NCBI GenBank assembly: GCA_903863885.1
Contig: CAIPEB010000326.1
Span: 1-55,907, forward strand
Length of the DNA stretch: 55,907 nt
Direction: 5' to 3'
From: an uncultured Planctomycetaceae bacterium
GTDB taxonomy: Bacteria; Planctomycetota; Planctomycetia; Pirellulales; Pirellulaceae
Positions within the stretch are counted from its first letter, which is position 1, and the number at the start of each line of letters is the position of its first letter. The notes beneath the pieces were generated by a model. It was given only the letters and a program-made list of their open reading frames with translations. It was not told the DNA's origin and did no database searches. Below are positions 6,931 through 46,381 of the stretch, in pieces. The position numbers and the translations under genes were made by a program.

Positions 6931-7052
6931 CCCCGCGGCAGCAGAGTGATCCGAATCAGTGGCAATCGGCGTTGACGATTCCAGCGCGTGACGGATACAA
7001 TTACCGGACTGACCGGTCCGCTCTTTCACAGATCGCCCTGATTGCTGCTCCC

Positions 7053-7775: not shown

Positions 7776-7795
7776 ACAAAGCGGAAGCAGGAAAC

Positions 7796-16100: not shown

Positions 16101-18734
16101 ATGCACTGCAGCAAACAGGGAAAGCTGGCTTGGGTCGGTGTTTTGCTTTCCGCGTCGGTTTGGTTCGGGGCCGCCGCTCGCGTGAAGAGCGAGCAGGCGA
16201 CTCCGCCGAATCCCGACCAACTGGAGTTCTTCGAAAAGCACATCCGGCCTGTTCTTGCGGAACGGTGCTATCCCTGTCACTCGGCCAAAGCGGGGAAGAC
16301 AAAGGCCGGGCTGAGCCTTGATTCGGCTGCCGGCGTGTTGCGCGGGGGGGAATCGGGGCCGGTGATCGTTCCGGGCAAGCCGGGCGAGAGTGCGCTGATT
16401 TCGGCCATCCGCTACGAGTCGAATGAAATGCCGCCGGACGGGCGGCTTTCCAGCGAAATCGTCGCGGATTTCGTGCACTGGGTGGAAACCGGAGCGTTCG
16501 ATCCTCGCACCGAGGCCGCGGGCGCCGCGCCGTCCGAGCCTGCTCCGCAAAAGGACGGGCACTGGGCTTTCCGCAACCCCGTGATTGGCGAACTGCCGGC
16601 AGTTCAGAATGCATCATGGGTGTCGACCGATGTCGACCGCTTCATTCTGGCGAGGCTGGAGCAGGCCAATGTTGCGCCGTCTCCGCCCGCCTCGCCCCGC
16701 GCGCTGCTGAGACGATTGTATTACGACCTGACAGGCCTGCCGCCTCAAGCGGAAGAGGCCGATCGATTCGCGGCCGGGCAGGGTGCGGATTATGCCGCGG
16801 TCGTTGACAGTCTGCTTGCGTCACCCCGCTTCGGCGAACGCTGGGGGCGGCACTGGATGGACGTGGCCCGTTACGCGGATACGAAGGGCTACGTCTTTCA
16901 GGAGGATCGCAACTATCCGAAAGCCTACCTGTTCCGGGACTGGGTCATTCAGGCGTTCAACAACGACATGCCATACGACCAGTTCATTACGAATCAACTT
17001 GCAGCGGATCAGGTCGATCCTTCTCAAGCGGCAGCGATGGGCTTCCTGACGCTGGGACGGCGTTTCATCAACAACAAGAACGACATCATTGACGACCGGA
17101 TCGACGTGGTGACGCGGGGCTTGATGGGTGTCACGGTCACCTGTGCCCGCTGCCACGACCATAAATACGATCCCGTGACGATGGCGGATTACTACGGAAT
17201 GTACGGCGTGTTCGACAGTTCCCGCGAACCGGCTGAAGCTTCGGCGCCGTTGATGATGGTCGACGAGAGTCAGCCGCGTGAACCCGTGATCTTCCTGCGA
17301 GGCAATCCTTCGAATCGCGGCCCGCAGGTACCGCGCAAGTTCCTCGCCTGCCTTTGCTCGGGCGATCCGGTGCCGTACCGGCACGGAAGCGGCCGGCGCG
17401 AAATGGCTTCGATGATTGCCAGCACCGACAATCCGCTGACGGCCCGCGTCTGGGTGAATCGCGTATGGCTGCATCTTGTCGGCCGCGGACTGGTCACTAC
17501 CCCCAGCGACTTCGGCTCGCGCAGCGATCCGCCCTCGCATCCGGAACTGCTGGATTGGCTGGCCTGCCGCTTCATGCAGGAGCATTGGTCCACGAAATGG
17601 CTGGTGCGACAAATCGTAATGTCGCAGGCCTATCGCCAGGCATGCGACGATCGCGCGGATGGAGCAGCCGCTGATCCGGAGAACCGTCTGGTGTGGCGCA
17701 TGAACCGGCGCAGAATGGACCTCGAATCGATTCGCGACGGCTTATTGACGGCAGCGGGGCGACTCGACCTGACAATGGGCGGGCCGTCGGTGCCGTTGAC
17801 CGAACCGCCTTTCGCAACGCGGCGATCCGTGTACGGGTTTATCGAGCGTCAGAACCTGCCGAACTTCTTCCGCATATTTGATTTCGCCGGTCCCGACACG
17901 CACAATCCGGCGCGTCCTTACACCACGGTGCCGCAGCAGGCGCTCTTTCTGATGAACAGTCCGTTTGCCATTGAGCAGGCCTCGAATCTGGCTGCGCGCA
18001 GTGCCGCGGCGGGCGGCGGCAACACGACGGCTCGCATCAAGAGCTTGTATCGATTCGCGCTGGCCCGCGATGCGAGCGACGAGGAGACCGCGTTGTGTGC
18101 TCACTTCGTCGAGACCAGCGAACCGGCCGCAGCGGCGGCGGCAATTGCCGATCCGTGGCAGTACGGTTGGGGGCGCTTCGTCGCCGAACAAGGGATCACT
18201 CAGTTCAACCCGCTGCCGCATTTCACGGGAAGTGCCTGGCAGGGAGGCAAGGATCTCCCCGACCCGCAACTGGGCTGGGTGATGTTGAACGCTCCGGGCG
18301 GCCATCCGGGCAACGATCTCGACCATGCGGCGATTCGACGATTTGTCGTGCCGCAGTCCGGTCGCTTGGTGATCAGGGGCTCGCTCCATCACCCGGCTGA
18401 ACAGGGCGACGGCGTGGTCGCACGCGTGGTGCGTCAGAACGGCGGTATTGTCAAGGAATTCACGGCACACCATTCGACAACACCGACCGACTGCGAACCG
18501 TTGACGGTGGGAGCGGGAGAGTCCATCGATCTGCTCGTGGATTGCGGCGCCGGAGGAAATAACTCCGACGGATTCAGCTGGACGGTCACGATACGCTGGG
18601 AATCTGAAAAGGGAGACGCGCGGGAATGGTCCTCCGAGGGCGGGTTTCACGGTCCTCCTCCTCCTCCGCTGGACCGGTGGACGTGTCTGGCTCATGTGCT
18701 GCTGATGAGCAACGAGTTCCACTTTGTTGACTGA
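16101..18734 (+). CDS. PSCyt1/DUF1549/DUF1553 domain protein (Planctomycete cytochrome-c-domain family)
   Basis: PSCyt1-type CxxCH region (FFEKHIRPVLAERCYPCHS), DUF1549 and DUF1553 regions; classic upstream partner of DUF1501 genes in Planctomycetota. Confidence 0.85.
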   Translation: MHCSKQGKLAWVGVLLSASVWFGAAARVKSEQATPPNPDQLEFFEKHIRPVLAERCYPCHSAKAGKTKAGLSLDSAAGVLRGGESGPVIVPGKPGESALISAIRYESNEMPPDGRLSSEIVADFVHWVETGAFDPRTEAAGAAPSEPAPQKDGHWAFRNPVIGELPAVQNASWVSTDVDRFILARLEQANVAPSPPASPRALLRRLYYDLTGLPPQAEEADRFAAGQGADYAAVVDSLLASPRFGERWGRHWMDVARYADTKGYVFQEDRNYPKAYLFRDWVIQAFNNDMPYDQFITNQLAADQVDPSQAAAMGFLTLGRRFINNKNDIIDDRIDVVTRGLMGVTVTCARCHDHKYDPVTMADYYGMYGVFDSSREPAEASAPLMMVDESQPREPVIFLRGNPSNRGPQVPRKFLACLCSGDPVPYRHGSGRREMASMIASTDNPLTARVWVNRVWLHLVGRGLVTTPSDFGSRSDPPSHPELLDWLACRFMQEHWSTKWLVRQIVMSQAYRQACDDRADGAAADPENRLVWRMNRRRMDLESIRDGLLTAAGRLDLTMGGPSVPLTEPPFATRRSVYGFIERQNLPNFFRIFDFAGPDTHNPARPYTTVPQQALFLMNSPFAIEQASNLAARSAAAGGGNTTARIKSLYRFALARDASDEETALCAHFVETSEPAAAAAAIADPWQYGWGRFVAEQGITQFNPLPHFTGSAWQGGKDLPDPQLGWVMLNAPGGHPGNDLDHAAIRRFVVPQSGRLVIRGSLHHPAEQGDGVVARVVRQNGGIVKEFTAHHSTTPTDCEPLTVGAGESIDLLVDCGAGGNNSDGFSWTVTIRWESEKGDAREWSSEGGFHGPPPPPLDRWTCLAHVLLMSNEFHFVD

Positions 18735-18813
18735 TCATTGATTTATTGAGGCGACGATCGTACCGAAAGGCGAACCGCTTGGCGGTTCTCGCAGGAATAC
18801 GGCGGGAGGCAAC

Positions 18814-20256
18814 ATGATGACAGGTCACGGCAATCCTTTCGAGCAACTGGCACTCACCCGTCGCGAGTTGCTGCGGGCTTGCGGCATGGGACTGGGATCA
18901 CTGGCCCTCGGCCAGATGCTGTCGGAGAGCAGCGTTGCGGCGAGCAGCGGCGCGAATCCTCTTGCCCCTCGGCCTCCGCAGTTTCCGGTCAAGGCCAAGC
19001 ACGTCATTCACCTGTTCATGAATGGCGGCCCTTCGCACGTCGATACGTTCGATCCCAAGCCCTCGCTCGAGAAATACGCAGGCAAGCCGCTGCCGACGGA
19101 CAATTTGAAGACGGAACGGCCGACCGGCGCGGCGCTTCCTTCCCCGTTCAAATTCAAGAAGTGCGGCCAGAGCGGCATCGAAGTCAGCGAGATATTCTCC
19201 CACGTCGGCGAGTCGATCGACGACATCGCGGTGATCCGGTCAATGTACGCCGATGTGCCGAATCACGAACCGTCGCTGCTGCTGATGAACTGCGGTGCCG
19301 CCCGCCAGATTCGTCCGAGCGTCGGGTCGTGGGTTACCTACGGCCTCGGGACCGAAAACCAGAATCTCCCGGCCTTCGTGGCAATGTGTCCGGGCGGTTA
19401 TCCGATCCAGGAATCGCAGAACTGGCAGGCCGGTTTCCTGCCCGGCGTCTTTCAGGGCACCTACATTGATTCGCAGCACACGCGAATCGAACAGTTGATC
19501 GAGCACATTCGCAATGATCGGATCTCGCTGCCTCGGCAGCGCGAACAGCTGGATCTGCTGCAGCAGTTGAACCAGCGCCATGCCGAAGCGCGGCAGCAGG
19601 ACAAAGAACTTGAAGCGCGCATCCAGTCGTTCGAACTCGCGTTTCGAATGCAGACTGAGGCCGCCGAGGCATTTGACGCAACTCGCGAGCCTCAGCACAT
19701 ACTCGATATGTACGGCCCCGGAGTGCAGGCTCGGCAGATCCTGATCGCACGCCGCCTTGTCGAGCGAGGCGTGCGATTCGTGCAATTGTGGCACGGGGCG
19801 GGCCAGCCATGGGACAGCCATGATGATCTGGCCATACAGCACCGGAATCTGGCAGGCCAGTGCGATCAGGCGATCGGCGCTCTTTTGAAGGACTTGAAAC
19901 AGCGAGGCCTGCTGGACGAAACGCTCGTGATCTGGGGCGGTGAATTCGGCCGGACTCCCGCGGTTGAATTGCCCAAGCAGGGCTCCAACGCGGGCAAAAT
20001 CAACGGCCGCGATCACAATCACTACGGGTTCACGGTCTGGATGGCCGGCGGCGGCGTGAAGGGCGGCATCACGCATGGCGCAACGGATGAGTTCGGGTTC
20101 CAGGCTGTCGAGAACCGCGTGCACGTTCACGATCTGCACGCCACGATCCTGCAATTGCTGGGCTTCGACCACTTGAAGCTGACGTACCGCTACGCGGGAC
20201 GCGACTTCCGGTTGACCGACGTGGCCGGCAACGTGGTCCGGGAACTGATCGCCTGA
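18814..20256 (+). CDS. DUF1501 domain protein (sulfatase/alkaline-phosphatase-like, Tat-secreted)
   Basis: Twin-arginine signal LTRRELLRACGMGLGSLALG; DUF1501-type core; always paired with the preceding DUF1549/1553 gene. Confidence 0.85.
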   Translation: MMTGHGNPFEQLALTRRELLRACGMGLGSLALGQMLSESSVAASSGANPLAPRPPQFPVKAKHVIHLFMNGGPSHVDTFDPKPSLEKYAGKPLPTDNLKTERPTGAALPSPFKFKKCGQSGIEVSEIFSHVGESIDDIAVIRSMYADVPNHEPSLLLMNCGAARQIRPSVGSWVTYGLGTENQNLPAFVAMCPGGYPIQESQNWQAGFLPGVFQGTYIDSQHTRIEQLIEHIRNDRISLPRQREQLDLLQQLNQRHAEARQQDKELEARIQSFELAFRMQTEAAEAFDATREPQHILDMYGPGVQARQILIARRLVERGVRFVQLWHGAGQPWDSHDDLAIQHRNLAGQCDQAIGALLKDLKQRGLLDETLVIWGGEFGRTPAVELPKQGSNAGKINGRDHNHYGFTVWMAGGGVKGGITHGATDEFGFQAVENRVHVHDLHATILQLLGFDHLKLTYRYAGRDFRLTDVAGNVVRELIA

Positions 20257-20850: not shown

Positions 20851-22164
20851 TCAGAGGAACTTCGAGATGCCGGGGACCGGACGCGGGTAATTTCCGTCGG
20901 CATCCGGCCTGGTGGGGGGCGTCGCATCGAGCGCCAGTCGTTCCGGCGCTACGCGGTATTTGGATTCAATCGCGTCCGCCCAGGTGATTTCATTGCCGCT
21001 GTAGCTCGCCCAGGTCGCGATGATGCCCAGCATGCTGCTGCGCGCCATGTAGAGGCTGTTGTTGATGGGCTGGCCGTTGCGGATCGAAGAAAAGAGCGCG
21101 ACGTGCTCGAGGTCAAAACGGTTGCAGGCCGGTCCCTCGTAGTGCCATTTCGTTTCGCCGTCGATGCGGTTGTTGAGCAGATCGCAGCGGCCTTTGGTGC
21201 CGTAGAACATGTCGGAGATCTCGGTCCGGCATCCATCCTGTTGCCGGCAATAGGCGTGCAATCGAGTCCCGTTTGCGTACTCGAAGATCGTCGCGTGATG
21301 GTCCCAGGCATCGCCGAATTGCTTGCCGACTCTCGATTCCCGGCCTCCCATGCCCCAGGCCTTGACCGGCGGTTCCTCGTGCATCGCCCACGCGGCCTTG
21401 TCGAGGTTGTGGACGAGATTCAGCCCCGGCAGATCGCAGGACAGCCAATAGAAATTGAACCAGTCGCGGATCTGGTATTCCATTTCGCTCCACGCGGGTT
21501 GGCGCAATCGCGAGCGGAGGCCTCCGGTGTTGCAGGTCTCGACAATCGAGACGATGTCCCCGATTGCACCGTCGTGCACCCGCTTCATCGTTTCCCGAAC
21601 GCCCGTGTCGTATCTCCAAGCCAGCCCCGACACGATGCTGAGTCCGCGTTTCCTGGCCTCTTCACCGGCGGCCAGAACCTGCTTCATTCCCATCGCGTCG
21701 ACTGCGTGGATCTTTTCGCAGAAGACGTGCTTTCCCGCCTGAATCGCCGCTTCAAGACAGATCGAGTGGAAGTAGGTCGGCAGTGCGATCAGCACGACAT
21801 CGACATCGGTCGCGAGCAGTTGTTTGCAGCTGTCAAAGCCGAGAAACCGATGGTCGCGGTCTACCGCAACCTGGCTGCCCTTCGCGTTGGTGATCTCCTG
21901 CAGGCTCGCATCGAGCATGTCCGGAAACAGGTCCGCGACGGCAGTGAGCTTCGCATTGGCGTCGGCGTTCAGCGCGTTCACCGCAGCACCGGTTCCGCGC
22001 GGGCCGCATCCGATCAACCCGACCCGAAGGACGTCGCTCCCGGCCGCATGGGCCTGATTTCGCATGGCGAGAGAGGCCACGGTCGCAGTCCCGATCGATG
22101 CGATGGAAGACTTGAGGAAAGCACGCCGCGATTCTTGCCGGGCATTGTTCATGGAACTTCTCAC
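20851..22164 (-). CDS. Gfo/Idh/MocA-family NAD(P)-dependent oxidoreductase, Tat-exported
   Basis: Tat motif SRRAFLKSS; Rossmann GLIGCGPRGTGAAVNAL; typical Gfo/Idh/MocA C-terminal alpha/beta domain. Confidence 0.8.
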   Translation of the reverse strand: MRSSMNNARQESRRAFLKSSIASIGTATVASLAMRNQAHAAGSDVLRVGLIGCGPRGTGAAVNALNADANAKLTAVADLFPDMLDASLQEITNAKGSQVAVDRDHRFLGFDSCKQLLATDVDVVLIALPTYFHSICLEAAIQAGKHVFCEKIHAVDAMGMKQVLAAGEEARKRGLSIVSGLAWRYDTGVRETMKRVHDGAIGDIVSIVETCNTGGLRSRLRQPAWSEMEYQIRDWFNFYWLSCDLPGLNLVHNLDKAAWAMHEEPPVKAWGMGGRESRVGKQFGDAWDHHATIFEYANGTRLHAYCRQQDGCRTEISDMFYGTKGRCDLLNNRIDGETKWHYEGPACNRFDLEHVALFSSIRNGQPINNSLYMARSSMLGIIATWASYSGNEITWADAIESKYRVAPERLALDATPPTRPDADGNYPRPVPGISKFL

Positions 22165-22200
22165 TGCGGAACGGAAAGTGCGTTGTTCGAGAATCTGTCG

Positions 22201-24813
22201 CTACTGCTTCCGGGATTCGGTTTCGCCCACGGACTCCACGGCCAGCGCCACGGCCGATACGGCGATTCCCGGCTTTTCGAAGCGAATCTCCAGTTCGCCG
22301 TCCTTCAGCAAACCTTCGGGTATTCGATAGCAGCGCGTGACCCACCATTCTTTCTTTTTCTCGACCGGCGGTCCCGTGCGCACAAACTCGCCCACGACCT
22401 TCGAGTTGACGAGGATGGTCTTTGCGCCCCCCTCAGGGCCTTCCGTCAATCGCACGACGAGCCACCGATATCCCTCGTCCCGGAAATCGCTTCGCGAGAG
22501 GATGCCCGGCTGATCGAAACTCGCGCTCCAGCTTTCGCCCTGGTCCTCGCCGTGCATCGTCCAGCCTGAGCATTTCAAGCCCGCGGGTTTCGGATAGTCT
22601 CCGAGCTGCACGAGCATGAACGGTTTCCCCGTCGCACGCAGCAGCGGCTCGAGCGGTGTGGCCGGCGCCGCCATCGCGAGGCGGCAATGGAAGTGATTGA
22701 ACAGGCCCGACGTTGCTCCCTGCGCTCTGGGATCGACCGGATGCGGAATGCGATCGTAAATTCCGTAGACTCGAGTCCAGTACTCCTGCGTCAGCGAGCG
22801 GACATCGAGCGCCTTCAACTGGTCCGCAATCCCGCGCAGTTTCACTTTGGCCGGCGTGTCGGTGCCCGGGGCGAGGATGGCCTCGGCCTCGACCAGCGAC
22901 AGCGGATTCTTCGACTCGCCCTTGCAGCCCGCAGCGGCCGCGGCGGCGTCCAACTGATCAAGCAGCAGCGCCGTCTCGGCCAGTTTGCCGAAAAGCCGGG
23001 CGAAGTAGGCCAGTTCGTCGCGATAGGCGGCTGCGGTCGTCGCGAGCGGAAGCGTGCTCTTTCGCGATCGATCGACTTGATCCAGTCGCGACGAGAGCTT
23101 TGCCATGCTCTCCTTGAGTCTCTGCGGGGTGTACGGGAAAGGCGGGTAATGGCCCCAGTCCGGGATCACCTCGAACTCTTCGAGCAGCGGCCCGATGTCT
23201 GCGTTTTCGGGGCCGAACACGAGCCGGCCGAAATCGCGGAGCGCGTCTTCCGGCTCGCGCGAAGGGTCCCACCAAGATTCCGCGCATGCAAAGATACTGA
23301 CCAACTGCAGCCTGGGCGCCATCGTGTAGCAGATGCCGCCCGAGTAGCAGCCCACGGCCAGTTCTTCACGCCGGCGGGCAAACGTGCGGCGCACGCGGCA
23401 CCGCGGCGATACGGTGCTCTCGCCCTCGGTGACGCTGTAGTCCCAGGTCAGCACCGTGTTCGTCTTGGCGGCACGCTTCGCATAGGGCTTGCCGTCCCCG
23501 CCGTGCGAGTCCGCATTGCAGTCGGGGCTGAATCCGAGGTTGATGCTCGCGAATGTGTCGGGCGGAAAATCCTTGAGGTGCGACAGCAAATACTCCATCG
23601 AAGACGCCGCGCGCTGCGTCGTTCCGGTCCACAATCCGGAGCCCCAGCCGGCAAACGGTTCACCCCAGGTTCCCACTTCGATGCGCGCCTGCGGCCGGTT
23701 CTTGCGGATGACCTTGCTCAGTTCAAGGCACAGATCGATGTAGGTTTCCGGCGTGCAGCCGTTCTTCGTGCAGCCGCCCGGATCGCCGGGAAACAGGCCC
23801 ATCGACTCGAGACCCTCAAGCGCCTTGGACCAGTGGTCCCAGAGCGCGACAAGTTCGTCGTGTTCCTCTTTCACGTGAGGGCAATGGAAGTGCCAGTCCG
23901 ATCCGACCGTGTTTACGGCTTGAATCGGGTGAACCGTGACTCCGCGTCGCTTTGCGTAAGCGATGACGTGGTTCATCGTCTCCGCGAACTTGCGTTGGAT
24001 CGCCGCGCCTTGAAGGGCATCCTTCGAGAAGAGCGTCGGCACAAGCCAGAATTCAAAGACGTTGTACCGAAACGCCGAGACCATATCGATGAAGCGATCC
24101 CAATCGTCGTTGCTCCATTGGTTGGTCGGTTCGTCGAACAGCAGATTGGGGTTGTAGGCGTTCTGAAGGTGCTCCGCGAAATTCACATAGCAGATGCGAA
24201 CCGGAAACCGGGGCCGTTCCACGACTCTCTGAAGACGGAGTCGAGCTGCGCCGCCTCGCGTATCCAGTTCGCGCAGCAGTTCGATGAGCCCGTACCGGCA
24301 GCCGATCGAGGCCGGGGACCAGCAGATCAGCAACTCGCCGGCGGCCGCATCGTCCACTCGCTGGATCACGTAGCCCTGCTCTCCGACGTCCGCCGGAAAT
24401 TTCAGTTGATGCTGCGAAGTCAATCGCGCAAGCAGCGGATGATCGCCGATGATCGCGACGATGTGACGGCCGGCCGGTTGCACCAGTTCTTCGCCGCCGA
24501 TTCGCAGCGTCGCTGCCGTTGACTGGCCGATGGCGTCGTTCAGCCAGCCTGCCGCGTTGCGCACGAGTTCCTGCGAGGCATCGCCGAGCAATGCCACGTC
24601 CGCCGTCGCTTTCTTGCCGGCCGCGAGCACGAAGTCGCCCCCGTGGGTTCGCTCGCAAGCGAACCCTTCCGGCCACGGCGAGGCTTTCCAGGACGGGGAG
24701 TCCGAGGCGACTCCTTCCGCGCGCCACGGAAAGGATGAAGCAATGGCCAAGGCCATGGACCCGGCAAGGAAATCACGCCGGTTGAGCGAGAGCGGCTTGG
24801 GAGCGAGCGTCAT
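22201..24813 (-). CDS. large Tat-secreted hypothetical protein (870 aa), possibly carbohydrate-active
   Basis: Tat signal LNRRDFLAGSMALAIASS; long uninterrupted ORF with consistent codon usage; no confident family assignment from sequence alone. Confidence 0.65.
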   Translation of the reverse strand: MTLAPKPLSLNRRDFLAGSMALAIASSFPWRAEGVASDSPSWKASPWPEGFACERTHGGDFVLAAGKKATADVALLGDASQELVRNAAGWLNDAIGQSTAATLRIGGEELVQPAGRHIVAIIGDHPLLARLTSQHQLKFPADVGEQGYVIQRVDDAAAGELLICWSPASIGCRYGLIELLRELDTRGGAARLRLQRVVERPRFPVRICYVNFAEHLQNAYNPNLLFDEPTNQWSNDDWDRFIDMVSAFRYNVFEFWLVPTLFSKDALQGAAIQRKFAETMNHVIAYAKRRGVTVHPIQAVNTVGSDWHFHCPHVKEEHDELVALWDHWSKALEGLESMGLFPGDPGGCTKNGCTPETYIDLCLELSKVIRKNRPQARIEVGTWGEPFAGWGSGLWTGTTQRAASSMEYLLSHLKDFPPDTFASINLGFSPDCNADSHGGDGKPYAKRAAKTNTVLTWDYSVTEGESTVSPRCRVRRTFARRREELAVGCYSGGICYTMAPRLQLVSIFACAESWWDPSREPEDALRDFGRLVFGPENADIGPLLEEFEVIPDWGHYPPFPYTPQRLKESMAKLSSRLDQVDRSRKSTLPLATTAAAYRDELAYFARLFGKLAETALLLDQLDAAAAAAGCKGESKNPLSLVEAEAILAPGTDTPAKVKLRGIADQLKALDVRSLTQEYWTRVYGIYDRIPHPVDPRAQGATSGLFNHFHCRLAMAAPATPLEPLLRATGKPFMLVQLGDYPKPAGLKCSGWTMHGEDQGESWSASFDQPGILSRSDFRDEGYRWLVVRLTEGPEGGAKTILVNSKVVGEFVRTGPPVEKKKEWWVTRCYRIPEGLLKDGELEIRFEKPGIAVSAVALAVESVGETESRKQ

Positions 24814-24845
24814 GGTTGCAGACTCCGGGTAATTCTTCCGCTGCC

Positions 24846-25877
24846 TTAACTGCTGACGGCGTTGAGGCTCTGCCAGCGATCGAGCACCTGCTGCGGAGTG
24901 GCGGTGCCGGTGGTTCCGAGTTGTTGCACGGTGATCGACGCGACCATGTTGCCGACGCCCGCCGCTTCGACGTCGCTCGCGCCGCTGAGCAGCGATACGA
25001 CGATGCCGCTGGATGCCGCGTCGCCGGCGCCGACGATGTCGATCGGGCCGGACACGGGGCAGCCCTCGACCCGCTGCGACGATTGGTCCGGACGCGCGAC
25101 GAGGATGCCTTCCTCGCCCATCGTACAGAAGACGGTGCGGCCCGTGCGGGCGGCAAGTCGCCCCGCCGCGTCCGCGTCATTTGCGGTTTCGCTGGAGGCG
25201 GCCGCCTGGATTTCGGCCCGATTTCCTTTCAAAGTCCCGAAGCCGAAGCACCGTAGGTGACGTCGGCTGTCGACGTACAGGAGCTTTTGCGGCGACTCCC
25301 GGGACAACTGCTCAAGTGTCTGCCGCACGGTGTCGTTGACGACTCCCCAGTTCGTCTCGTTGATCTGATCCATCACCATCAGGCCGTCGCACACGTTCCA
25401 GACTTCGCGGACCGCATTGCAGACGCGCTGTGTCGTCGCGTCCGACAGCGGGCCGAGCGTTCGGACGTCGAGACGATTCAATTCTTCCCATTGTCCCGGG
25501 GCCCCGGGACGCAACGGCTTGGTGTAGGTCGGCGTGAGGCGGTTCGGGTCGCGCAGAATCCAGCGACTGTCCACCGGCATGGCCTCGAGCGGCTTGCACA
25601 GATCAAACGCGTGGCCGTCGTCTCCGAGCACGGTAACGGGCAGAAGCCGGCCGACTCCGAGCGCGGCCAGGTTGTTCATCACCGTGCCCAATGCGCCCGG
25701 AGCGTTTCGAACGCGATCGATCTGATAAGCTTCAAGTCCCGTTTCGAGCGATGTTTCATGGCGGTTTGCCGCCAGTTCCAGATAACGGTCAAGAAACAGG
25801 TCGCCGATGAGGCCGATGGTGAGGCGGGGGAGATTGTCCAGGATCGACTGCAGGCGATTGAGCGAGAGGGATTTCAT
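24846..25877 (-). CDS. PfkB-family carbohydrate kinase (RfaE/HldE domain-I-like sugar kinase)
   Basis: N-terminal LIGDLFLDRY motif and C-terminal GAGDAASSG motif (PfkB signatures 1 and 2). Confidence 0.75.
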   Translation of the reverse strand: MKSLSLNRLQSILDNLPRLTIGLIGDLFLDRYLELAANRHETSLETGLEAYQIDRVRNAPGALGTVMNNLAALGVGRLLPVTVLGDDGHAFDLCKPLEAMPVDSRWILRDPNRLTPTYTKPLRPGAPGQWEELNRLDVRTLGPLSDATTQRVCNAVREVWNVCDGLMVMDQINETNWGVVNDTVRQTLEQLSRESPQKLLYVDSRRHLRCFGFGTLKGNRAEIQAAASSETANDADAAGRLAARTGRTVFCTMGEEGILVARPDQSSQRVEGCPVSGPIDIVGAGDAASSGIVVSLLSGASDVEAAGVGNMVASITVQQLGTTGTATPQQVLDRWQSLNAVSS

Positions 25878-25953
25878 TCGGCACGCGTTGGTAAGGGAAT
25901 GCTCGAATTAGCGGAGAGTTCACCGTCGCAGCTTGCTCAGCCCGCCGGACCGT

Positions 25954-26946
25954 TCAGCCTCCGGATTGCTCGGCTTCGGCCGCCATCGCCGCGAGCCGCA
26001 ACTGCGGCAGGGTCCGCCGATGCTCGCCGCGAATGTAGAAGCTCTCGCCGCCATCCGCGACCGTGCGCACGAGAACCGTCTTCCACGGGCGGTAATAGTA
26101 CTGATGATCGGTCTTGTTTGCCTCGGAGCGGAAATCGCCGCTGAGCGGCAACAGATCGAAGACGGCGGTTGCGAAGTTCGAGATGCGCCGCCCTTCCTGG
26201 CACGCGACGTTTCGAGCCATCGCGAGCGCTTTCAAATAGACTTCCGGTCCCATCACCGCGGAACCGTAGCAGAGGAAGGCACCGCCCTCGAGACGGTCGA
26301 CCGTGGCACAGACCGCGAGGAAGTCGCGATAGCTCGCCGTGGCAAACAGAGCCGGGTCGAAATTCGGGTGCTCGTGCAGGATGTCGTACCCGATGCCGAC
26401 ATGCACCGAGGCGGGAATGCCGAGGCGGGCCGCAGCGGCCAGCACACTCAGGTCCTTATGCGGGTAGTCGCTCTCGAGAATCGCGCGGCCGATGGCTTCG
26501 CCAAGCCCCAGGCCGGCTCGCGCGCCGGCGTTCACGAGGTCGTTGAGTTCGCCCGTCTCGCGCCATAGTCCGAATTCCCCGGTGCGGATGTAGCGTGCGA
26601 CGCTTTCGCAGGTTGCTCCGATGCGGGCCATCTCGTAGTCGTGGATCGGCCCCGCTCCGTTCAGGCCGATGTGGGTGATGAGGCCCCGTTCGAGCAGGTC
26701 GATCAACTGCCGCTGAACGCCGGAGCGGATCACGTGCGCGCCCATCAGCATCAGGACCGAAGCGCCTCGCTTCTTTGCGGCCACAAGCCGGTGGCCGAGC
26801 AGCGCGAGGTCCTGCATGGCCGGCCGCTCGAGCGGCAGAGGCGGTGCGTCCAGCGCAAGGACCGTGGTGTGCGAGACGTCGTGCGTGCGCTCGTCGAGCG
26901 GGCGGATGCGCAAACGGCTTCGATCGAACTGCGGCAACCTGCTCAT
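25954..26946 (-). CDS. deoxyhypusine synthase-like family protein
   Basis: Region LMLMGAHVIRSGVQRQLIDLLERGLITHIGLNGAGPIHDYE parallels the DHS motif (TSNLISSGxRE...TTAGGVEED); C-terminal GSAVMGPEVYLKALAMARN resembles the DHS GGGVVKHHIANANLMRNG segment. Start set at MSRLPQF (ATG 26944-26946) overlapping the HAD stop by 4 nt. Confidence 0.55.
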   Translation of the reverse strand: MSRLPQFDRSRLRIRPLDERTHDVSHTTVLALDAPPLPLERPAMQDLALLGHRLVAAKKRGASVLMLMGAHVIRSGVQRQLIDLLERGLITHIGLNGAGPIHDYEMARIGATCESVARYIRTGEFGLWRETGELNDLVNAGARAGLGLGEAIGRAILESDYPHKDLSVLAAAARLGIPASVHVGIGYDILHEHPNFDPALFATASYRDFLAVCATVDRLEGGAFLCYGSAVMGPEVYLKALAMARNVACQEGRRISNFATAVFDLLPLSGDFRSEANKTDHQYYYRPWKTVLVRTVADGGESFYIRGEHRRTLPQLRLAAMAAEAEQSGG

Positions 26947-27788
26947 GGTATTCCTATCAATTGCATCAAGTTGTCGAGGCAGCGGTAATCCCCGATGATC
27001 AGATCCGCGCCCGCCGTGATCAGCCGGTTGCGTTTCCAGTCGTTGATTCCCACCCTCGTCGTTTCGTTGCTGGCGACACCGATGGCCAGACCGCCAACTT
27101 TTCTGGTTTCCTCGATTTCGACGAACCCGTCGCCGAACGCGACGATGTGGCGTCCGGGAAGGCCCGTATCCTCGATCATCCTGTGGATAATCATCGCCTT
27201 GGAAAACTGCTTGTAGTCGTCCAGGGCTCCGTAGATGTGCGACCCGAAGAATTCGTCGAGCCCCAGCAGCGCGACTTCGTCGCGGACGTACTTGAGGTCC
27301 GTCCCCGATGCGAGATACAGGGTCAGGCCGGCCTTCTGCAATCGCTGCAGCAGCCCGCGCGAACCGGGCACCGTCATGACTTCCGGAGGCACGCGACCGC
27401 AACGCACGTCGTCGATGCGCACACCGACTTCGCGCCAGAGCAGATCGTGGTACTGGTGCTTGTACTCGAGCGGTTCACGAGGCTCGCCGCCGCGCCGCCG
27501 CACCTCGTCGGCCAACTGCATCATCTGGTAGATGGTCTGCCGGCCATTGAGACGCATCACGAAGTCTTCGACAACCGCGTACAGCTCCTCGCGGGTTTCG
27601 CTTGTCCCGGTCTCGCTGAGCACATCCACCATCATCGGGATCATGGTGTCCTGCCAGTTGCGCCGCAACAGCGAAAGCGTGCCGTCGAAATCAAAGATCG
27701 CGGCGCGGAAATCGCCGCGCGGAAAATCGTCGCGCGCGATCTCCAGTCCGTCGGACGCCTGGCGATCTGAATTATCGGATCCCGTCAT
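26943..27788 (-). CDS. HAD-superfamily hydrolase/phosphatase
   Basis: Motif I FDFDGTLS, motif IV GDGFVEIEE; start MTGSDN (ATG 27786-27788). Confidence 0.7.
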   Translation of the reverse strand: MTGSDNSDRQASDGLEIARDDFPRGDFRAAIFDFDGTLSLLRRNWQDTMIPMMVDVLSETGTSETREELYAVVEDFVMRLNGRQTIYQMMQLADEVRRRGGEPREPLEYKHQYHDLLWREVGVRIDDVRCGRVPPEVMTVPGSRGLLQRLQKAGLTLYLASGTDLKYVRDEVALLGLDEFFGSHIYGALDDYKQFSKAMIIHRMIEDTGLPGRHIVAFGDGFVEIEETRKVGGLAIGVASNETTRVGINDWKRNRLITAGADLIIGDYRCLDNLMQLIGIP

Positions 27789-27911
27789 GACTATCAGGTT
27801 CTCCCGCCCTGCCGCACAGAAGATAACGCGGTACCTCACAGCGAAGTCGCCGCGCAGCGCCGGCAGGGGAGCCCAAATTATTAACGCCGGATCCGATCTT
27901 GTATACAGGCA

Positions 27912-28121
27912 CTAAGTCGCGTCTTCCGGTGCGTCCGACGGAAGGGCTGCATCGGAAGGAGGCTCCTCGGCAGAGGCCGTGCGCCCATGTTGACGCACGG
28001 CCTCGCGAAGCAGGAACTCGATCTGGCCATTCACGCTGCGAAGTTCGCTCTGAGCCCATGTCTCGAGTGCCGAGTACAGGTCCGGGCTGATACGCAGCAG
28101 AAATGACTTGCGCGGTGTCAT
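27912..28121 (-). CDS. ribbon-helix-helix (Arc/MetJ/CopG-type) DNA-binding protein, 69 aa
   Basis: [35 protein letters not shown] fits the beta-strand, helix, helix RHH pattern (Arc-like); lies 12 nt downstream of the SPFH gene. Confidence 0.55.
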
Positions 28122-28132
28122 GTCCCGGCACC

Positions 28133-29020
28133 TCAGTTGTAGAGCGTGCCCGTATTGATGACGGGCTGTGCATCGTGCTCACCACAGAGTACCACGAGCA
28201 GATTGCTCACCATCGCGGCCTTGCGCTCTTCGTCCAACTCCACAATGTGATTCTCGGCCAAGTCCTGCAGAGCCATCTGCACCATGCTCACGGCGCCGTG
28301 GACGATCTTCTGCCGCGCGTCGATGATCGCTTCGGCCTGCTGCCTCCGCAGCATCATGCCGGCAACTTCCGCCGCGTAGGCCAGGTGCGTCAGTCTCGCT
28401 TCCTCCACGTGCACGCCGGCTCGCGAAACTCGCTCGCACAACTCAGCGGTCAACGCCGCCGCGACTTCGTCCATGCCGCCGCGCAGAGTCGTCTCGTGCC
28501 CCTCGCCGTAGTCGTAAACGTAAAGACTGGCCAGATGACGCAGCGCGGATTCGCTCTGGATCCGGACATAGTCTTCATACCGCTCAACATCAAAGACGGC
28601 TTGCGTCGTATCCTCGACTCGCCACACCACCACCGCAGCGATCTCGATCGGATTGCCCCGCTTGTCGTTCACCTTCAATCGGACGCTTTCCAGGTTGCGA
28701 GCCCGCAGCGAGATCCTGAGCTTGGTGTTCAGCGGATTCGTCCAGTGCCAACCGCTCTCGCGAACCGTGCCAACGTACGCGCCGAATAACACCAGCACGC
28801 GAGCTTCGTTCGGTTGAAGGGAAAAGTATCCGTTGCAGCTGACTCCCCCGAGCAACGCAAACACCAGGGCGCCTACGAACGAATAAAGGTTGAAGATATT
28901 GGTCTGCTTCGCCCAGTAAATCGTCCAAATGAACAGCCCTATCGCCGCGGCGAGCAACGCAATCGTGACCGGCAGGACAAGCCAGCCGCTGAGCACCCGA
29001 ACGGTCTTTTCACGGTTCAT
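28133..29020 (-). CDS. SPFH/band-7 domain membrane protein
   Basis: Two N-terminal TM helices then SPFH core ([28 protein letters not shown]...[14 protein letters not shown]...); GGAG RBS 8 nt before ATG at 29020. Confidence 0.8.
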
Positions 29021-30308: not shown

Positions 30309-30902
30309 CTATTTTGCCGCATCTACGCGTTCGATCACTTTGTCGATCAGTCGATATTCCATGGCCTCATCGGCCGTCATGAAGCGATCGCGGTCAGTGT
30401 CCTTCTCGATGCGATCCAGCGGATGGCCCGTGTGCTTGATCAGGATCTGGTTCATCCGCTCCTTGATGCGTTTGAACTCGCGGGCGTGAATGGCGATTTC
30501 TTCGGCGGTGCCCTGCATTCCGGCCAGCGGCTGGTGGATCATGATTCGTGCGTTGGGAAGCGCAAATCGCTTTCCGGTTGCGCCGGCGGTCAGCAGGATT
30601 GCGCCCATCGACGCGGCCTGTCCGATGCAGTAGGTCGCAACGTCGCACGCCACGAACTGCATCGTGTCGTAAATCGCCATGCCGGCGCTCACGCTTCCGC
30701 CGGGCGAGTTGATATACAGGTGGATGTCGGCGCGGGGATCTTCCGATTGCAGGAAGAGCATCTGGGCGACGATGCAATTGGCGATTTCGTCATCAACGCC
30801 CGTGCCGAGAAAGATGATGCGGTCCTTGAGCAGCCGGCTGTAAATGTCGTAAACCCGCTCTTCACGGCCGCTCTTCTCGATGACGTACGGTATGGTTGGC
30901 AT
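30309..30902 (-). CDS. clpP: ATP-dependent Clp protease proteolytic subunit
   Basis: Near-identical to canonical ClpP over its length ([23 protein letters not shown]..., Ser-His-Asp triad context GQAASMG, IMIHQP); start MPTIPYV with GGAG RBS. The alternative upstream start at 30917 is possible. Confidence 0.9.
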
Positions 30903-30988
30903 CGCCGCTCGCTCCATTCGCTCTTGACCGGGGGCTGGTCGTCGTGCCGGTCTTCCCGGATAACGCACTACCTCGGCCTATGAGTTCT

Positions 30989-31654
30989 TCAACTCGATTT
31001 GGGGCCGTCCCAGGGCTTTTCGTTCTCGTCCTCGTCGCTTTCCGGTTTGGTCAGGATGGAATCGACGAGGCCGTATTCCTTGGCTTGTTCCGGGGTCAGG
31101 AACAGATCCCGATCCGTGTCCTTGGCGATCGCGGCAAGTTCCCTGCCGGTGTGCCGCGACAAGATGTCGTTCAGCATCTCGCGATTTCGCAGGATTTCGT
31201 TCGCCTGGATTTCAATGTCGCTGACCTGGCCGCTCACACCGCCGAACGGCTGATGCAGCAGCACCCGCGAATGAGGCAGTGCGAATCTCTTGCCTTTGGT
31301 ACCGCCTGCCAGCAGCACGGCAGCACCGCTGGCTGCCTGACCGACGCAGTACGTGGCGACCGGGCAACTGAGAATCTGCATCGTGTCGTAAATCGCCAGC
31401 GTCGAGATCACGTCGCCGCCGGGCGAATTCAAATAGAAGTGGATGTCTTTGCGCCGGTTTTCGCTCTGCAGATAGAGCAGCTTCATCACCACTTCGTTGG
31501 CGTTGCCGGTGTAAATCTCGCCCTGGAGAAACACGATACGGTTTTCCAGGAGCAAATCACCGAGCGTAAGCTGACGCTGTCGTTGATACGACTGGTACGA
31601 GTACGAGTTGAGTAGGGGTGCCGACGATCCGCTCATGGCAGCAGCATCCTTCAT
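30989..31654 (-). CDS. clpP: ATP-dependent Clp protease proteolytic subunit paralog
   Basis: Second ClpP (LGDLLLENRIVFLQGEIYTGNANEVVMKLLYLQ...GQAASGAAVLLAGG...VLLHQP) with acidic C-terminal tail; tandem with clpP1. Confidence 0.85.
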   Translation of the reverse strand: MKDAAAMSGSSAPLLNSYSYQSYQRQRQLTLGDLLLENRIVFLQGEIYTGNANEVVMKLLYLQSENRRKDIHFYLNSPGGDVISTLAIYDTMQILSCPVATYCVGQAASGAAVLLAGGTKGKRFALPHSRVLLHQPFGGVSGQVSDIEIQANEILRNREMLNDILSRHTGRELAAIAKDTDRDLFLTPEQAKEYGLVDSILTKPESDEDENEKPWDGPKSS

Positions 31655-31754
31655 CTCTGGCGGCAGGCCGAGTCACGCGCCGCAAATTTCGCGGGGGAAG
31701 GGGTTGCGAGCCAAGCCGCCTGCGGCTCGACTCCCAGGCACAGCCGCAGCAGAC

Positions 31755-33242
31755 TCAGCTATGCGTCGAAGTCCCGGGCAACTCCTCGGCTTCGCCCTGG
31801 TACTTCGCGTCCGGTATCTCGGCATCGGCGTCATGGCCGCCGATAGCATGGTCGATCCCTGCGGTGTCCTCGCGATGGGGCTCGAAGGGCACATCCGTGA
31901 ATTCGGCGTGTGATGTGATCAGTGCAATCACCTTGCGCTCGACGATCTGATTGCGCAGCGAATCCATCTGGCCCCGCTTCTCAAGACGGGCTCTCACGCG
32001 TCGAGGCGATTCCTGGCTTTGGGCTGCAATCAGTTTCACTTCCGCATCGTAGTCGCCGGGCGCGGCGTCAACTTTTTCTTCTTCCGCAATGCGTTCCAGG
32101 ATGAAATGTTCCTTCAACGCAACCGCCGTCGTCTGCTCGCTGTTCTGACGCAGCTGATTTTGGTATGCGCGGATGAATTCATCCGAGAAACCGCTTGCTC
32201 GCAATTCGAGCACGGCTCGCTCCAGTTCACGCCGCGACTGACGACGCAGCAGGTCGGAGGGCAGTTCCCAGTCCGCAGACTGCACCAGCAGACCGCTGAT
32301 CTGCTTGCGAATCTGCTGCTGCTGGTAGTAATTCAACTGTCTTTCGAGTTCATCCCGAACCGCGTTTCGCAGTTCGTCTTCGTCCTCGAATCCGCCGATG
32401 GAGTCCAGGAAGCTCGGAGTCAGTTCCGGCAGTTGCATTCCCTTGACGTCAACGACTCGAATCTCGACGTCAAGTTCCTTGCCTCGCATCTCTTCGCGAT
32501 CGGCTTGGTCGCTGATCTTCGCCTTCACCGAACGGCAGTCGCCCGCTTTGGCTCCGATCATGAGCGAATCAAAACCGTCGATCGTCGTATCGCGGAAGCT
32601 CAACTTCGGACGGATTTCAACGGTCTGTTCGGTGATTTCCGATACGACGTGATCGCCGTCCTTGCTCACCACCTGAATCGTAACGCGATCGTCCGCTTCG
32701 GCCGGACCTTCCTTCGACGTCAATTGCCCGTAACGAGCCAGCAATTTGCGGAGATGAGCCTGAATATCGGCATCCGTGTACTCACGGACCGGTCGCTTCA
32801 GGTTCAGTCCTTTCCATTGCGGCAGGTCGAATTCCGGCCGGACTTCGATCTCGAACTCGAACGTCAACGGCCCCTCTTCCGGCAATTCGATCGCTTCAAA
32901 ATCGAAGTCGGGCTCGCTGATCGCCGAAAAAGAAGAGTCTTCGTTGATCTGGGTCACGCTGTCCATCAACAGCGAACCTTTGACCTGATTGGCCATCTGC
33001 TCGCGGAACCGCGTTTCGACCAGCTTCCTCGGGGCTCGTCCGGGACGAAAACCCGGGACTTCAGCCTTCGGGGCCAGATCGTCGAAAGCTTCCTTGAAAT
33101 ACCGATCGATATCGGCGCGCGGAACCGTCACCGTCACATGGCGTTTGCATGCACCACGCTTTTCGACTTTGATCTCGAGAGCCAACTTGGCCTTCGGCGT
33201 CTCTTCGGCTTCGTTTGCCAAATCGATTTCGGGATTTGCCAT
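31755..33242 (-). CDS. tig: trigger factor (ribosome-associated PPIase chaperone)
   Basis: N-terminal ribosome-binding domain (GFRPGRAPRKLVE), FKBP-like middle, C-terminal arm; classic tig-clpP order. Confidence 0.9.
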   Translation of the reverse strand: MANPEIDLANEAEETPKAKLALEIKVEKRGACKRHVTVTVPRADIDRYFKEAFDDLAPKAEVPGFRPGRAPRKLVETRFREQMANQVKGSLLMDSVTQINEDSSFSAISEPDFDFEAIELPEEGPLTFEFEIEVRPEFDLPQWKGLNLKRPVREYTDADIQAHLRKLLARYGQLTSKEGPAEADDRVTIQVVSKDGDHVVSEITEQTVEIRPKLSFRDTTIDGFDSLMIGAKAGDCRSVKAKISDQADREEMRGKELDVEIRVVDVKGMQLPELTPSFLDSIGGFEDEDELRNAVRDELERQLNYYQQQQIRKQISGLLVQSADWELPSDLLRRQSRRELERAVLELRASGFSDEFIRAYQNQLRQNSEQTTAVALKEHFILERIAEEEKVDAAPGDYDAEVKLIAAQSQESPRRVRARLEKRGQMDSLRNQIVERKVIALITSHAEFTDVPFEPHREDTAGIDHAIGGHDADAEIPDAKYQGEAEELPGTSTHS

Positions 33243-34783: not shown

Positions 34784-36382
34784 TCATTTCACCTCCGCAT
34801 CGGCAGCGTCCTTCCGCGGCGGGATCGGTTTCTCTTCGGAATCTTTGCCAAGCCGGATCAGGGACTCCGGCAGTTCGATGCCGCCGATGTCTTTCATTAC
34901 CTGCATCATGGGTGGCAGGCTTCGGGAAATGCCGCTGAGAAAATCGGCCGTACTGCTCCGCCCGTTCTGGCCGCCGTTTTCCCAGACGACGATTTTGTCG
35001 AACTTGATATTGGAGATCGCGCGGGCCGAAGTTTCGGCGAGCCGATCGAGATGTTCCAGCATCAGCAGCTGGAATGCGCGGTCGGCGCCGCCGCAGGCCT
35101 CGACGATCTGTTTGAGGCCTTCGCCCTTCTTGGCCAGGATTTCAAACTGGCCCCTGGCCTCCGCCGCGAGCTTCGCGTAGTTCGCATCCGCTTCGGCCTG
35201 AGCGTCGATGCGTTTTCTTTCCGCTTCGGCTTCCGCCTGAACCACGATACGGGCTTTTTCCGCTTTGGCAGGCGCCTCGAGTTGTGCGCGTTTCTCGGCT
35301 TCCACTCGTTCGGCCTCTGCGAGCATCGCCTTGGCCATCGCACGGTTCTGGACTTCGAGCACTGCGGCTTCTGCTTCCCGCTTCCGGCTTTCGCCGATCT
35401 GGTACGCCTCGGCTTTTCTCACCTGCAATTCGGCCTGCGAACCGGCGATCTTCGCCTGCGAGAGGTTTTCGCCTTCGATTGCCTCCGCATCGGCGGCAGC
35501 CACGCGAATACGCTTGTCGCGTTCCGCCGCCTTCACCTCGGCTTCCCGGCCGAATGCGGCCTGCTGTTCGCCGACGATCTGCTCCCGTTCCAGATCGGCA
35601 AGCTTGATCTGCTGGTCCCGCTCCGCCTCACGCGTCCCGATCGCCTGGTCGCGGCGCGAATTGGCGACCTGGATCGACTTGTCGCGTTCGGCCGTGGCGA
35701 CGCGCGTTTCGCCCATGCGCAAGTTGTCCGCCACGTCGCCGCGAGCCTTCTGGATGGCCTCCGATGCGGCCTTCTGGCCGATGGCGTCGATATAACCCGA
35801 CTCGTCCGTGATGTCCGTGATGTTGACGTTGATGAGTTGAAGGCCGATCTTGCTCAACTCAGGCTCGAGCGAATGCTGCACGTGCTTGAGGAACACGTCG
35901 CGGTCGCGATTGATCTCCTCGATGTGCATCGAAGCGATGACCTGCCGCAGTTGGCCGAAGATCATTTCCTCGGCCTGCTTGCGGATCTCCGCGGCGGAAA
36001 GCCCGAGCAGTCGCACGGCCGCGTTCTGCATGACCTCGGGCCGCGTATCGACGGCGACCGTGAAGACGCTCGGCACGTTTACCCGGATGTTCTCCGCGGA
36101 CAACGCACCGCGAAGCGGCACTTCGATCTGGATCGGCTCGAGGCTCAGGTACGCGAAGTCCTGCAGAAGCGGTACCACGAATGCGGCACCGCCATGAATC
36201 GTGCGCGCCGCGCCGCCTTTGTTCGTGCGGCCGTAAATCACCAGCACGCGGTTACTCGGACACCGCTTGTATTGCCGCGAGAAGAGAATCACCACCATCA
36301 GGAAGAACATGGCCGCGAAGCCCGCTGCGACGAGCACCGGGACCCACCAGTCGGCGGCCGCGATAATCATGGTTGAAGACAT
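34784..36382 (-). CDS. flotillin-family SPFH protein (FloA/YqiK-like)
   Basis: N-terminal TM, SPFH domain, very long Ala/Glu-rich coiled coil (EAEAERKRIDAQAEADANYAKLAAEARGQ), flotillin C-terminus; start MSSTMIIAAADWW (ATG 36380-36382). Confidence 0.85.
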   Translation of the reverse strand: MSSTMIIAAADWWVPVLVAAGFAAMFFLMVVILFSRQYKRCPSNRVLVIYGRTNKGGAARTIHGGAAFVVPLLQDFAYLSLEPIQIEVPLRGALSAENIRVNVPSVFTVAVDTRPEVMQNAAVRLLGLSAAEIRKQAEEMIFGQLRQVIASMHIEEINRDRDVFLKHVQHSLEPELSKIGLQLINVNITDITDESGYIDAIGQKAASEAIQKARGDVADNLRMGETRVATAERDKSIQVANSRRDQAIGTREAERDQQIKLADLEREQIVGEQQAAFGREAEVKAAERDKRIRVAAADAEAIEGENLSQAKIAGSQAELQVRKAEAYQIGESRKREAEAAVLEVQNRAMAKAMLAEAERVEAEKRAQLEAPAKAEKARIVVQAEAEAERKRIDAQAEADANYAKLAAEARGQFEILAKKGEGLKQIVEACGGADRAFQLLMLEHLDRLAETSARAISNIKFDKIVVWENGGQNGRSSTADFLSGISRSLPPMMQVMKDIGGIELPESLIRLGKDSEEKPIPPRKDAADAEVK

Positions 36383-36416
36383 CGTTGAAATCTCCGAGTT
36401 GTTCGTGCCGTCCCAG

Positions 36417-45466: not shown

Positions 45467-45547
45467 ACACGGAGTTTCCACGAGCGGCCCGCGAGCAGTT
45501 TTCGGGGCCGTCCCTTTCGTATTCCCGGAAGCGATGCGAGGCGGATC

Positions 45548-46345: not shown

Positions 46346-46381
46346 ACTGCCGCAAGACTTCATGCAGGGGAGTTCACGGAA

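Follow-up and report, generated by a model that had tools for sequence, protein, structure and literature searches.

A block of seven co-directional genes

We analysed a stretch of 55,907 nucleotides from an uncultured Planctomycetaceae bacterium (contig CAIPEB010000326.1), referred to here as the window, and within it a block of seven closely packed open reading frames (ORFs) at positions 20851-29020, all of them on the minus strand and in the same direction. Read along that strand, the block opens with an SPFH/Band 7 membrane protein of 295 aa (28133-29020; Pfam Band_7, 85.7 bits) and a small ribbon-helix-helix (RHH) protein of 69 aa (27912-28121; Pfam RHH_5, 30.2 bits, cutoff 26). These are followed by a HAD-superfamily hydrolase with a cap domain (26943-27788 from its ATG, 281 aa; the longest ORF extends to 27839), a 330-aa protein of the GSU2086 family (25954-26946; NCBIfam NF052581), which a previous sequence-only reading had called deoxyhypusine synthase (DHS)-like, and a 343-aa sugar kinase of the PfkB family (24846-25877). 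The last two genes encode proteins with signals for twin-arginine translocation (Tat): an 870-aa protein (22201-24813), whose structural model has a GH115/GH84-like architecture, and a 437-aa Gfo/Idh/MocA NAD(P) oxidoreductase (20851-22164). Our principal subject is the HAD, GSU2086 and PfkB genes, hereafter the triad.

All seven ORFs proposed in the sequence-only reading are present, and its SPFH, RHH, HAD, PfkB and Gfo/Idh/MocA assignments exceed the respective Pfam gathering scores. The stop codon of the HAD gene and the start codon of the GSU2086 gene overlap by 4 nt (ATGA, 26943-26946), as had been noted. The other gaps measure 11 nt (SPFH-RHH), 123 nt (RHH-HAD), 76 nt (GSU2086-PfkB), 32 nt (PfkB to the 870-aa gene) and 36 nt (870-aa gene to Gfo/Idh/MocA); the range of 33-124 nt given earlier is accurate to within 1 nt, except for the much shorter SPFH-RHH gap. 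We found identical gene calls on three public contigs (L005-L007), with proteins identical to those of the window, indicating that these come from the same or nearly the same organism.

Promoter and terminator scans of the block gave match counts no better than those of shuffled sequence, and none of the seven proteins matched a PADLOC defence model. The sole sigma-70-like consensus match between positions 20500 and 29500 (TATACA-17-AATAAT; 27877-27905, minus strand) falls inside the RHH-HAD gap, which is the expected site for a promoter belonging to the triad itself, and the match count there is at chance level.

Three of the seven genes are conserved together

We investigated the neighbourhoods of 83 non-redundant GSU2086 loci, obtained by scanning a species-level genome collection with a 12-sequence alignment of the family. 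Because ORF calls in GC-rich loci are unreliable, owing to shadow ORFs and over-extended starts, the neighbourhood counts are based on tblastn labels, with Pfam applied to selected ORFs only. The loci span Planctomycetota, Acidobacteriota, Armatimonadota, Chloroflexota, Verrucomicrobiota, Latescibacteria and Clostridiales. A HAD homologue in the same direction abuts the GSU2086 gene upstream in 49 of 78 loci, and a co-directional RfaE-I-like PfkB kinase abuts it downstream in 58 of 78. The triad is complete in 45 of the 74 species-level loci for which both flanks were available, in at least seven phylum-level groups; neither HAD nor PfkB adjoins GSU2086 in 16 of the 74. Two Pirellulales-like genomes, at approximately 72% identity, have only the HAD, GSU2086 and PfkB genes in common with the window, and differ in their flanks. 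Thus, HAD, GSU2086 and PfkB form a conserved three-gene unit across many bacterial phyla.

The sequence-only reading had treated all seven genes as a single operon, encoding a pathway for a modified sugar or polyamine conjugate whose last steps would take place outside the cytoplasm through the exported 870-aa and Gfo/Idh/MocA proteins. The shared direction of the genes, the gaps of 11-123 nt, the lack of a convincing terminator between PfkB and the two Tat genes and the recurrence of the arrangement on three public contigs (albeit with identical proteins) are all compatible with such a pathway. However, in the closest relative with a distinct sequence (L008, 84% identical), SPFH and RHH are still found upstream of the triad while both Tat genes are missing after PfkB. 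Outside the window-identical contigs, the Tat genes accompany the triad in none of the approximately 80 other loci, and we found no SPFH, RHH, 870-aa protein or adjacent Gfo orthologue in any surveyed locus, except for the SPFH and RHH of L008. Homologues of the 870-aa protein lie in unrelated neighbourhoods, and there is no polyamine-related gene among the annotated neighbours of the triad. A single seven-gene pathway is therefore very improbable, and has already been largely refuted by the missing conserved synteny. Neighbourhood conservation, which had been put forward as a check, upholds the three-gene unit and not the block of seven, and SPFH and RHH are a separate two-gene unit that is common only to close relatives. 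For annotation, the lesson is that close co-directional spacing here does not define a functional unit.

In a single case, a Pirellulaceae metagenome-assembled genome (MAG; L017), HAD and PfkB are missing, and a phosphomutase of the PGM/PMM family (6061-7902, plus strand) lies directly upstream of GSU2086. The mutase would fit as a stand-in for the kinase and phosphatase pair; we treat this neighbour as an anecdote.

The central gene encodes a GSU2086-family protein with a predicted DHS/LOR-SDH-type fold

The central protein of the triad scores 363.8 bits against the NCBIfam model NF052581 ("GSU2086 family protein"; cutoff 250), with residues 6-316 aligned to model positions 1-298 of 301. The family takes its name from a Geobacter locus tag and has no function assigned; in the openly accessible literature, a search for a characterised member turned up a Geobacter transposon-sequencing (Tn-seq) table and no paper on its activity. 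The family is large: clustering at 50% identity leaves 2119 representatives, and a one-genome-per-species collection yields at least 599 matching stretches. It is also unusually conserved, the window protein being 57-64% identical to homologues from Acidobacteriota, Armatimonadota, Chloroflexota, Verrucomicrobiota and a Clostridiales MAG.

An AlphaFold model (pLDDT 85.4, pTM 0.88) matched three groups of structures in Foldseek and structural alignments, and the window protein is predicted to adopt a DHS-like NAD-binding fold, namely a Rossmann fold of the DHS/LOR-SDH type. A sequence search of the PDB with a single GSU2086-like query found nothing, and a profile of the family matched AgrE/ArgZ (E 1.5e-7), in a region that spans only the N-terminal dinucleotide-binding motifs ("G.HVI..G ... 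NGA..IHD.E"). By analogy with these proteins, GSU2086 probably binds NAD.

The nearest enzymes of solved structure all have amines as substrates and work by NAD-dependent transient oxidation, so the central protein might itself be an amine enzyme: either an aminobutyl transferase related to deoxyhypusine or homospermidine synthase, or an ornithine-cyclodeaminase-like enzyme as in AgrE. Some GSU2086 relatives carry weak precomputed matches to the Pfam DS family (PF01916), which at approximately 20 bits are below the gathering score of 27 and cover only the N-terminal Rossmann region, and one family member is annotated by JGI as "deoxyhypusine synthase". However, at E<=0.01 Pfam DS gives no match to the window protein, identity to DHS or AgrE in the structural alignments is 10-18%, and the profile match does not go beyond the dinucleotide-binding motifs. 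Moreover, in the loci surveyed the recurrent partners of the family are all sugar-phosphate or glycan genes, with no polyamine or arginine-metabolism gene among the annotated neighbours of the triad. We consider a true amine enzyme to be a very remote prospect. The earlier description as DHS-like is correct for the fold but does not extend to the DS family itself; the proposal of a polyamine-type transferase, which derives from the fold, is not supported.

The phosphatase and the kinase of the triad

The HAD protein matches generic models (Pfam Hydrolase, 49.3 bits; HAD_2, 34.9 bits), and its translation contains the catalytic motifs DFDGT and GDG; we infer that it is a sugar-phosphate phosphatase. 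The kinase is a clear member of the PfkB family (Pfam PF00294, 77.9 bits, cutoff 25.8), with the GAGD catalytic motif carried in the segment "VGAGDAASSG". Its best NCBIfam model is rfaE_dom_I, matched over the full length at 100.2 bits, and the next-best model reaches 47 bits at the C-terminus only. In 51 loci, the triad kinase can be aligned to domain I of Escherichia coli HldE, with 25-31% identity. By sequence similarity, the PfkB protein thus appears closest to the heptose-7-phosphate kinase domain I of RfaE/HldE. The likeness of the kinase and phosphatase pair to nucleotide-heptose synthesis, which the sequence-only reading had remarked upon, proved to be the key lead.

Fusions and neighbours of heptose type

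The strongest evidence that links the triad to heptoses comes from gene fusions. We identified a single 1021-aa protein (P0201) in which PfkB, HAD and GSU2086 are joined, as well as HAD-GSU2086 fusions (P0126, with a HAD domain 51% identical to the window HAD, and P0172), a fusion of a GmhB-type HAD-IIIA domain to GSU2086 (P0140) and a GSU2086-PfkB fusion (P0160). GSU2086 is additionally fused to GmhA-like SIS domains (P0122, P0151), to RfaE-II-like nucleotidyltransferases (P0125, P0217) and, in a three-part arrangement, to a DUF89 ("damage-control") phosphatase and RfaE-II (P0202, P0216). Whichever the fusion partner, the NCBIfam model that scores highest describes its counterpart in the ADP-glycero-manno-heptose pathway.

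Similar associations were found among separate genes. With SIS-domain queries, 20 loci were seen to have a GmhA-like gene no more than 4 kb away, and the Escherichia coli GmhA query gave matches in 23 loci. In Acidobacteriota, Ornatilinea and the Clostridiales MAG, the gene order is HAD, GSU2086, PfkB, ROK kinase and SIS. In two Gemmataceae loci without the HAD and PfkB of the triad, a GmhB-like gene abuts GSU2086 (L021 being among the GmhB cases). Members of a distant GSU2086 clade have a SIS_2 gene directly before GSU2086 (L090, L100); in L090 the score of this gene, 206.7 bits, is just short of the gmhA cutoff (209.45). Other members of this clade adjoin glycosyltransferases and polysaccharide export genes.

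Several further features of these neighbourhoods were noted. A ROK-family sugar kinase, usually followed by a GmhA-like SIS gene, is found after PfkB in 21 loci (including L026, L028, L031 and other Acidobacteriota, L084 and L088), so that the cassette in these loci holds two kinases; the ROK protein may serve in the salvage phosphorylation of a free sugar, or may be a regulator. In Ornatilinea apprima (L084), a LarC-like nickel-insertion protein (10057-11244, plus strand; Pfam Ni_insertion, 205.6 bits) is inserted between PfkB and the ROK kinase, a case seen at one locus and, as for the phosphomutase above, regarded as an anecdote. In two of the five distant-clade contexts examined (L091, 3146-4057; L101, 7088-8017), the gene directly before GSU2086 encodes a DUF3108 protein, with glycosyltransferase or polysaccharide-export genes close by.

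Evidence from the founding member of the family is also available. In Geobacter sulfurreducens, GSU2086 sits between hldE (GSU2085) and gmhA (GSU2087), and the Tn-seq scores of the three genes for growth on electrodes are similar, at -3.1, -3.2 and -3.7 (PMC5585712).

We considered whether the triad might act instead on a phosphosugar other than a heptose (a hexose, pentose or cyclitol-type compound), for example for a compatible solute or another activated sugar, with the heptose matches reflecting generic SIS, PfkB, HAD and cytidylyltransferase chemistry. All of the heptose-family hidden Markov model (HMM) scores are below the equivalog cutoffs, and the ROK kinase that follows PfkB in many loci would be superfluous in a canonical heptose pathway. 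The family is also present in Chloroflexota and in a Clostridiales MAG, lineages of types thought to be without classical lipopolysaccharide (LPS). However, heptoses are also found in the capsules and S-layer glycans of LPS-free bacteria, and four different partner domains are each matched best by the heptose enzyme model rather than by a sister family. The SIS neighbour in L090 comes close to the gmhA cutoff, and in Geobacter the family member is flanked by annotated hldE and gmhA genes, with one phenotype across the three mutants. A substrate outside the heptoses is, in our view, unlikely.

A proposed role in heptose activation

Taken together, we consider it likely that HAD-GSU2086-PfkB (24846-27788) is a conserved cytoplasmic cassette of glycero-manno-heptose-type sugar activation, and that the other genes of the block are independent units. 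The best reading of the triad is a variant of the glycero-manno-heptose activation module with an extra, probably NAD-binding, step.

We infer every step of the following route. A GmhA-like isomerase, encoded elsewhere in the genome, would convert sedoheptulose 7-phosphate to heptose 7-phosphate. By analogy with RfaE domain I, the RfaE-I-like PfkB kinase would phosphorylate heptose 7-phosphate at its anomeric carbon. The HAD protein would remove the 7-phosphate in the role of GmhB, a correspondence suggested by other lineages, in which GmhB-type and DUF89 phosphatases are fused or adjacent at this position. GSU2086 would add an NAD-dependent, redox-neutral conversion, for example an epimerisation, of the heptose phosphate or of the nucleoside diphosphate (NDP)-heptose; such redox-neutral chemistry is the hallmark of its structural relatives. 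We favour an action at or near the heptose-7-phosphate stage, because GSU2086 recurs beside GmhA alone and because the kinase and phosphatase of the cassette are non-canonical, in which case the modified heptose would then be handled by a dedicated kinase and phosphatase. Nucleotide activation would depend on an enzyme encoded elsewhere, since neither the window nor the surroundings of the 83 loci, out to approximately 8 kb, contain an RfaE-II-like gene. The contexts in other genomes suggest that the product is a precursor for an envelope or surface glycan.

A more specific proposal, which we offer tentatively and hold to be possible rather than probable, is that the GSU2086 family provides a previously unrecognised NAD-dependent step, on a DHS/LOR-SDH-type fold, that remodels a heptose phosphate or NDP-heptose, giving a non-canonical activated envelope heptose in Planctomycetota, Acidobacteriota, Armatimonadota, Chloroflexota and others.

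Several observations weigh against these proposals. The fusion partners, the PfkB kinase and the neighbouring SIS proteins all score below the NCBIfam heptose equivalog cutoffs, so that the sugar could be a relative of heptose rather than glycero-manno-heptose itself. For the PfkB kinase of the window the shortfall is wide (100.2 bits, against an rfaE_dom_I equivalog cutoff of 345); the RfaE-like label of the sequence-only reading hence holds for the PfkB family and the best model, and fails at the equivalog level. The window HAD matches generic HAD models only, with no GmhB or HAD-IIIA match (TIGR00213/NF006506). Heptosyltransferases, as well as RfaE-II-like nucleotidyltransferases, were found neither within approximately 8 kb in the 83 loci nor in the window. 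No GmhA, RfaE-II/HldC or HldD is encoded in the 56-kb window either, which consequently holds no canonical ADP-heptose operon. In L063, GSU2086 has a genuine HldD (TIGR02197; 362 bits, with a cutoff of 274.6) at a distance of 2 kb, implying that GSU2086 is not simply a replacement of the known epimerase. The Tn-seq defect of GSU2086 in Geobacter could be a polar effect. No terminator is predicted in the 32-36 nt gaps 3' of PfkB, so that the triad and the two Tat genes may be co-transcribed. Finally, the activity that we ascribe to the family is deduced from sequence, fold and gene context, and the binding of NAD from similarity of fold and motifs.

An alternative for the step itself is that GSU2086 is a non-orthologous substitute for HldD, acting as an NAD-dependent C6'' epimerase that converts ADP-D-glycero- to ADP-L-glycero-D-manno-heptose in an otherwise canonical ADP-heptose pathway. 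Of the five enzyme types in the canonical pathway, four (SIS, PfkB, HAD and cytidylyltransferase-like) occur among the fusion partners and neighbours of the family, the short-chain dehydrogenase/reductase (SDR) epimerase is never among them, and the predicted fold is typical of enzymes with NAD-based transient oxidation. However, the HldD found in L063 indicates that the two proteins co-occur, the pairing of GSU2086 with GmhA alone in the distant clade suggests the heptose-7-phosphate stage rather than ADP-heptose, and the divergent kinase and phosphatase of the cassette fit an altered substrate better than the canonical pathway. We downgraded the replacement of HldD in view of the L063 locus, and judge it doubtful. 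A different candidate, GSU2086 as a replacement of the nucleotidyltransferase, was raised by the missing RfaE-II near the 83 loci and was rejected as a main idea, GSU2086 being fused to RfaE-II in several proteins.

Intermediates and products of the heptose pathway include precursors of the LPS core, targets for antibiotic adjuvants and agonists of innate immunity, ADP-heptose being sensed by ALPK1. This pathway is already known, and the GSU2086 family is catalogued yet uncharacterised. That it is fused or adjacent to all four early heptose enzyme types implies that a heptose derivative or a pathway step has yet to be described, and this would apply to abundant environmental phyla with poorly known envelope glycans.

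Genes outside the triad

The 870-aa protein (22201-24813) carries the twin-arginine motif NRRDFLAG and is matched by no model in Pfam or NCBIfam, in agreement with the sequence-only reading; by sequence, it is a member of neither GH115 nor GH84. The fold, described there as unknown, can now be narrowed by structure prediction and a fold search, both of which had been suggested. In an AlphaFold model (pLDDT 90, pTM 0.89), an alpha/beta domain at the N-terminus is combined with a TIM barrel, a bundle of helices and, at the C-terminus, a beta-sandwich. The top Foldseek matches of the model, with E-values ranging from approximately 1e-20 to 1e-15, are GH115 alpha-glucuronidases (E 3.5e-20) and GH84 O-GlcNAcases. 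The predicted multidomain layout resembles that of these enzymes, whereas identity is 10-13% and TM-scores are approximately 0.45-0.55, so that the likeness is one of fold and architecture. On this model, the protein would most simply be a secreted glycoside hydrolase of an unclassified family. We identified 285 homologues, the named ones mostly from Planctomycetota, and those on three other contigs lie in three unrelated neighbourhoods.

The Gfo/Idh/MocA protein (20851-22164; Pfam PF01408, 41.8 bits, cutoff 24) has the twin-arginine motif SRRAFLKS, bearing out its earlier description as exported. Its best NCBIfam matches are far below cutoff (inositol 2-dehydrogenase, 64 bits; BT_2158 glycoside 3-dehydrogenase, 46 bits). 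Both Tat proteins fit the exported carbohydrate repertoire of Planctomycetota rather than a cytoplasmic cassette, and they are probably periplasmic or secreted carbohydrate-processing enzymes that lie downstream of the triad by chance in this lineage.

The wider window has genes typical of Planctomycetota and Pirellulales, and the closest homologues carry the names Pirellulaceae or Planctomycetota. A typical planctomycete pair, encoding a PSCyt1/PSCyt2/PSD1 protein (877 aa) and a DUF1501 protein (480 aa), occupies 16101-20256 on the plus strand, convergent with the block. On the minus strand, tig-clpP-clpP (30309-33242) lies just upstream of the triad region, as it does in several Pirellulales contigs; this synteny is recurrent (the window, L003, L005-L009 and L090), and we have no explanation for it. 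Similarly, a tig-clpP-clpX run precedes SIS-GSU2086 by a few genes in a Limnocylindrales (Chloroflexota) MAG. The window also encodes a second and longer SPFH/Band 7 protein (34784-36466, minus strand; 560 aa, 94 bits), 6 kb from SPFH-RHH. Finally, a large Lhr-type helicase of 1508 aa (40940-45466, plus strand) overlaps a 1737-aa ORF on the opposite strand (42047-47260, minus strand), which is probably a GC-rich shadow ORF.

Comparison with known systems

The triad resembles the canonical ADP-heptose pathway in pairing a PfkB kinase, for which RfaE domain I is the best curated model, with a HAD phosphatase, and in the fusion or adjacency of GSU2086 genes to GmhA-, RfaE-II- and GmhB-like proteins, including the position of the founding member between hldE and gmhA in Geobacter. 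It differs in its additional DHS/LOR-SDH-like enzyme, which has no counterpart in that pathway. The HAD is of the capped type and not the HAD-IIIA type of GmhB, and the kinase is monofunctional, with a score well under the equivalog cutoff. Nor is the triad accompanied by a nucleotidyltransferase, HldD or heptosyltransferase, either in the window or near most loci.

The central protein can similarly be compared with DHS and with the LOR/SDH-type C-terminal domain of AgrE/ArgZ. Its conserved N-terminal glycine-rich and "HD.E" motifs align with the Rossmann region of AgrE/ArgZ, whereas overall identity is low, as described above, and Pfam DS is not matched. In contrast to DHS and AgrE/ArgZ, the partners of GSU2086 are sugar-phosphate enzymes, and not polyamine, arginine or translation-factor genes. 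If our proposal for the family is true, the DHS/LOR-SDH superfamily would extend from amine to sugar chemistry.

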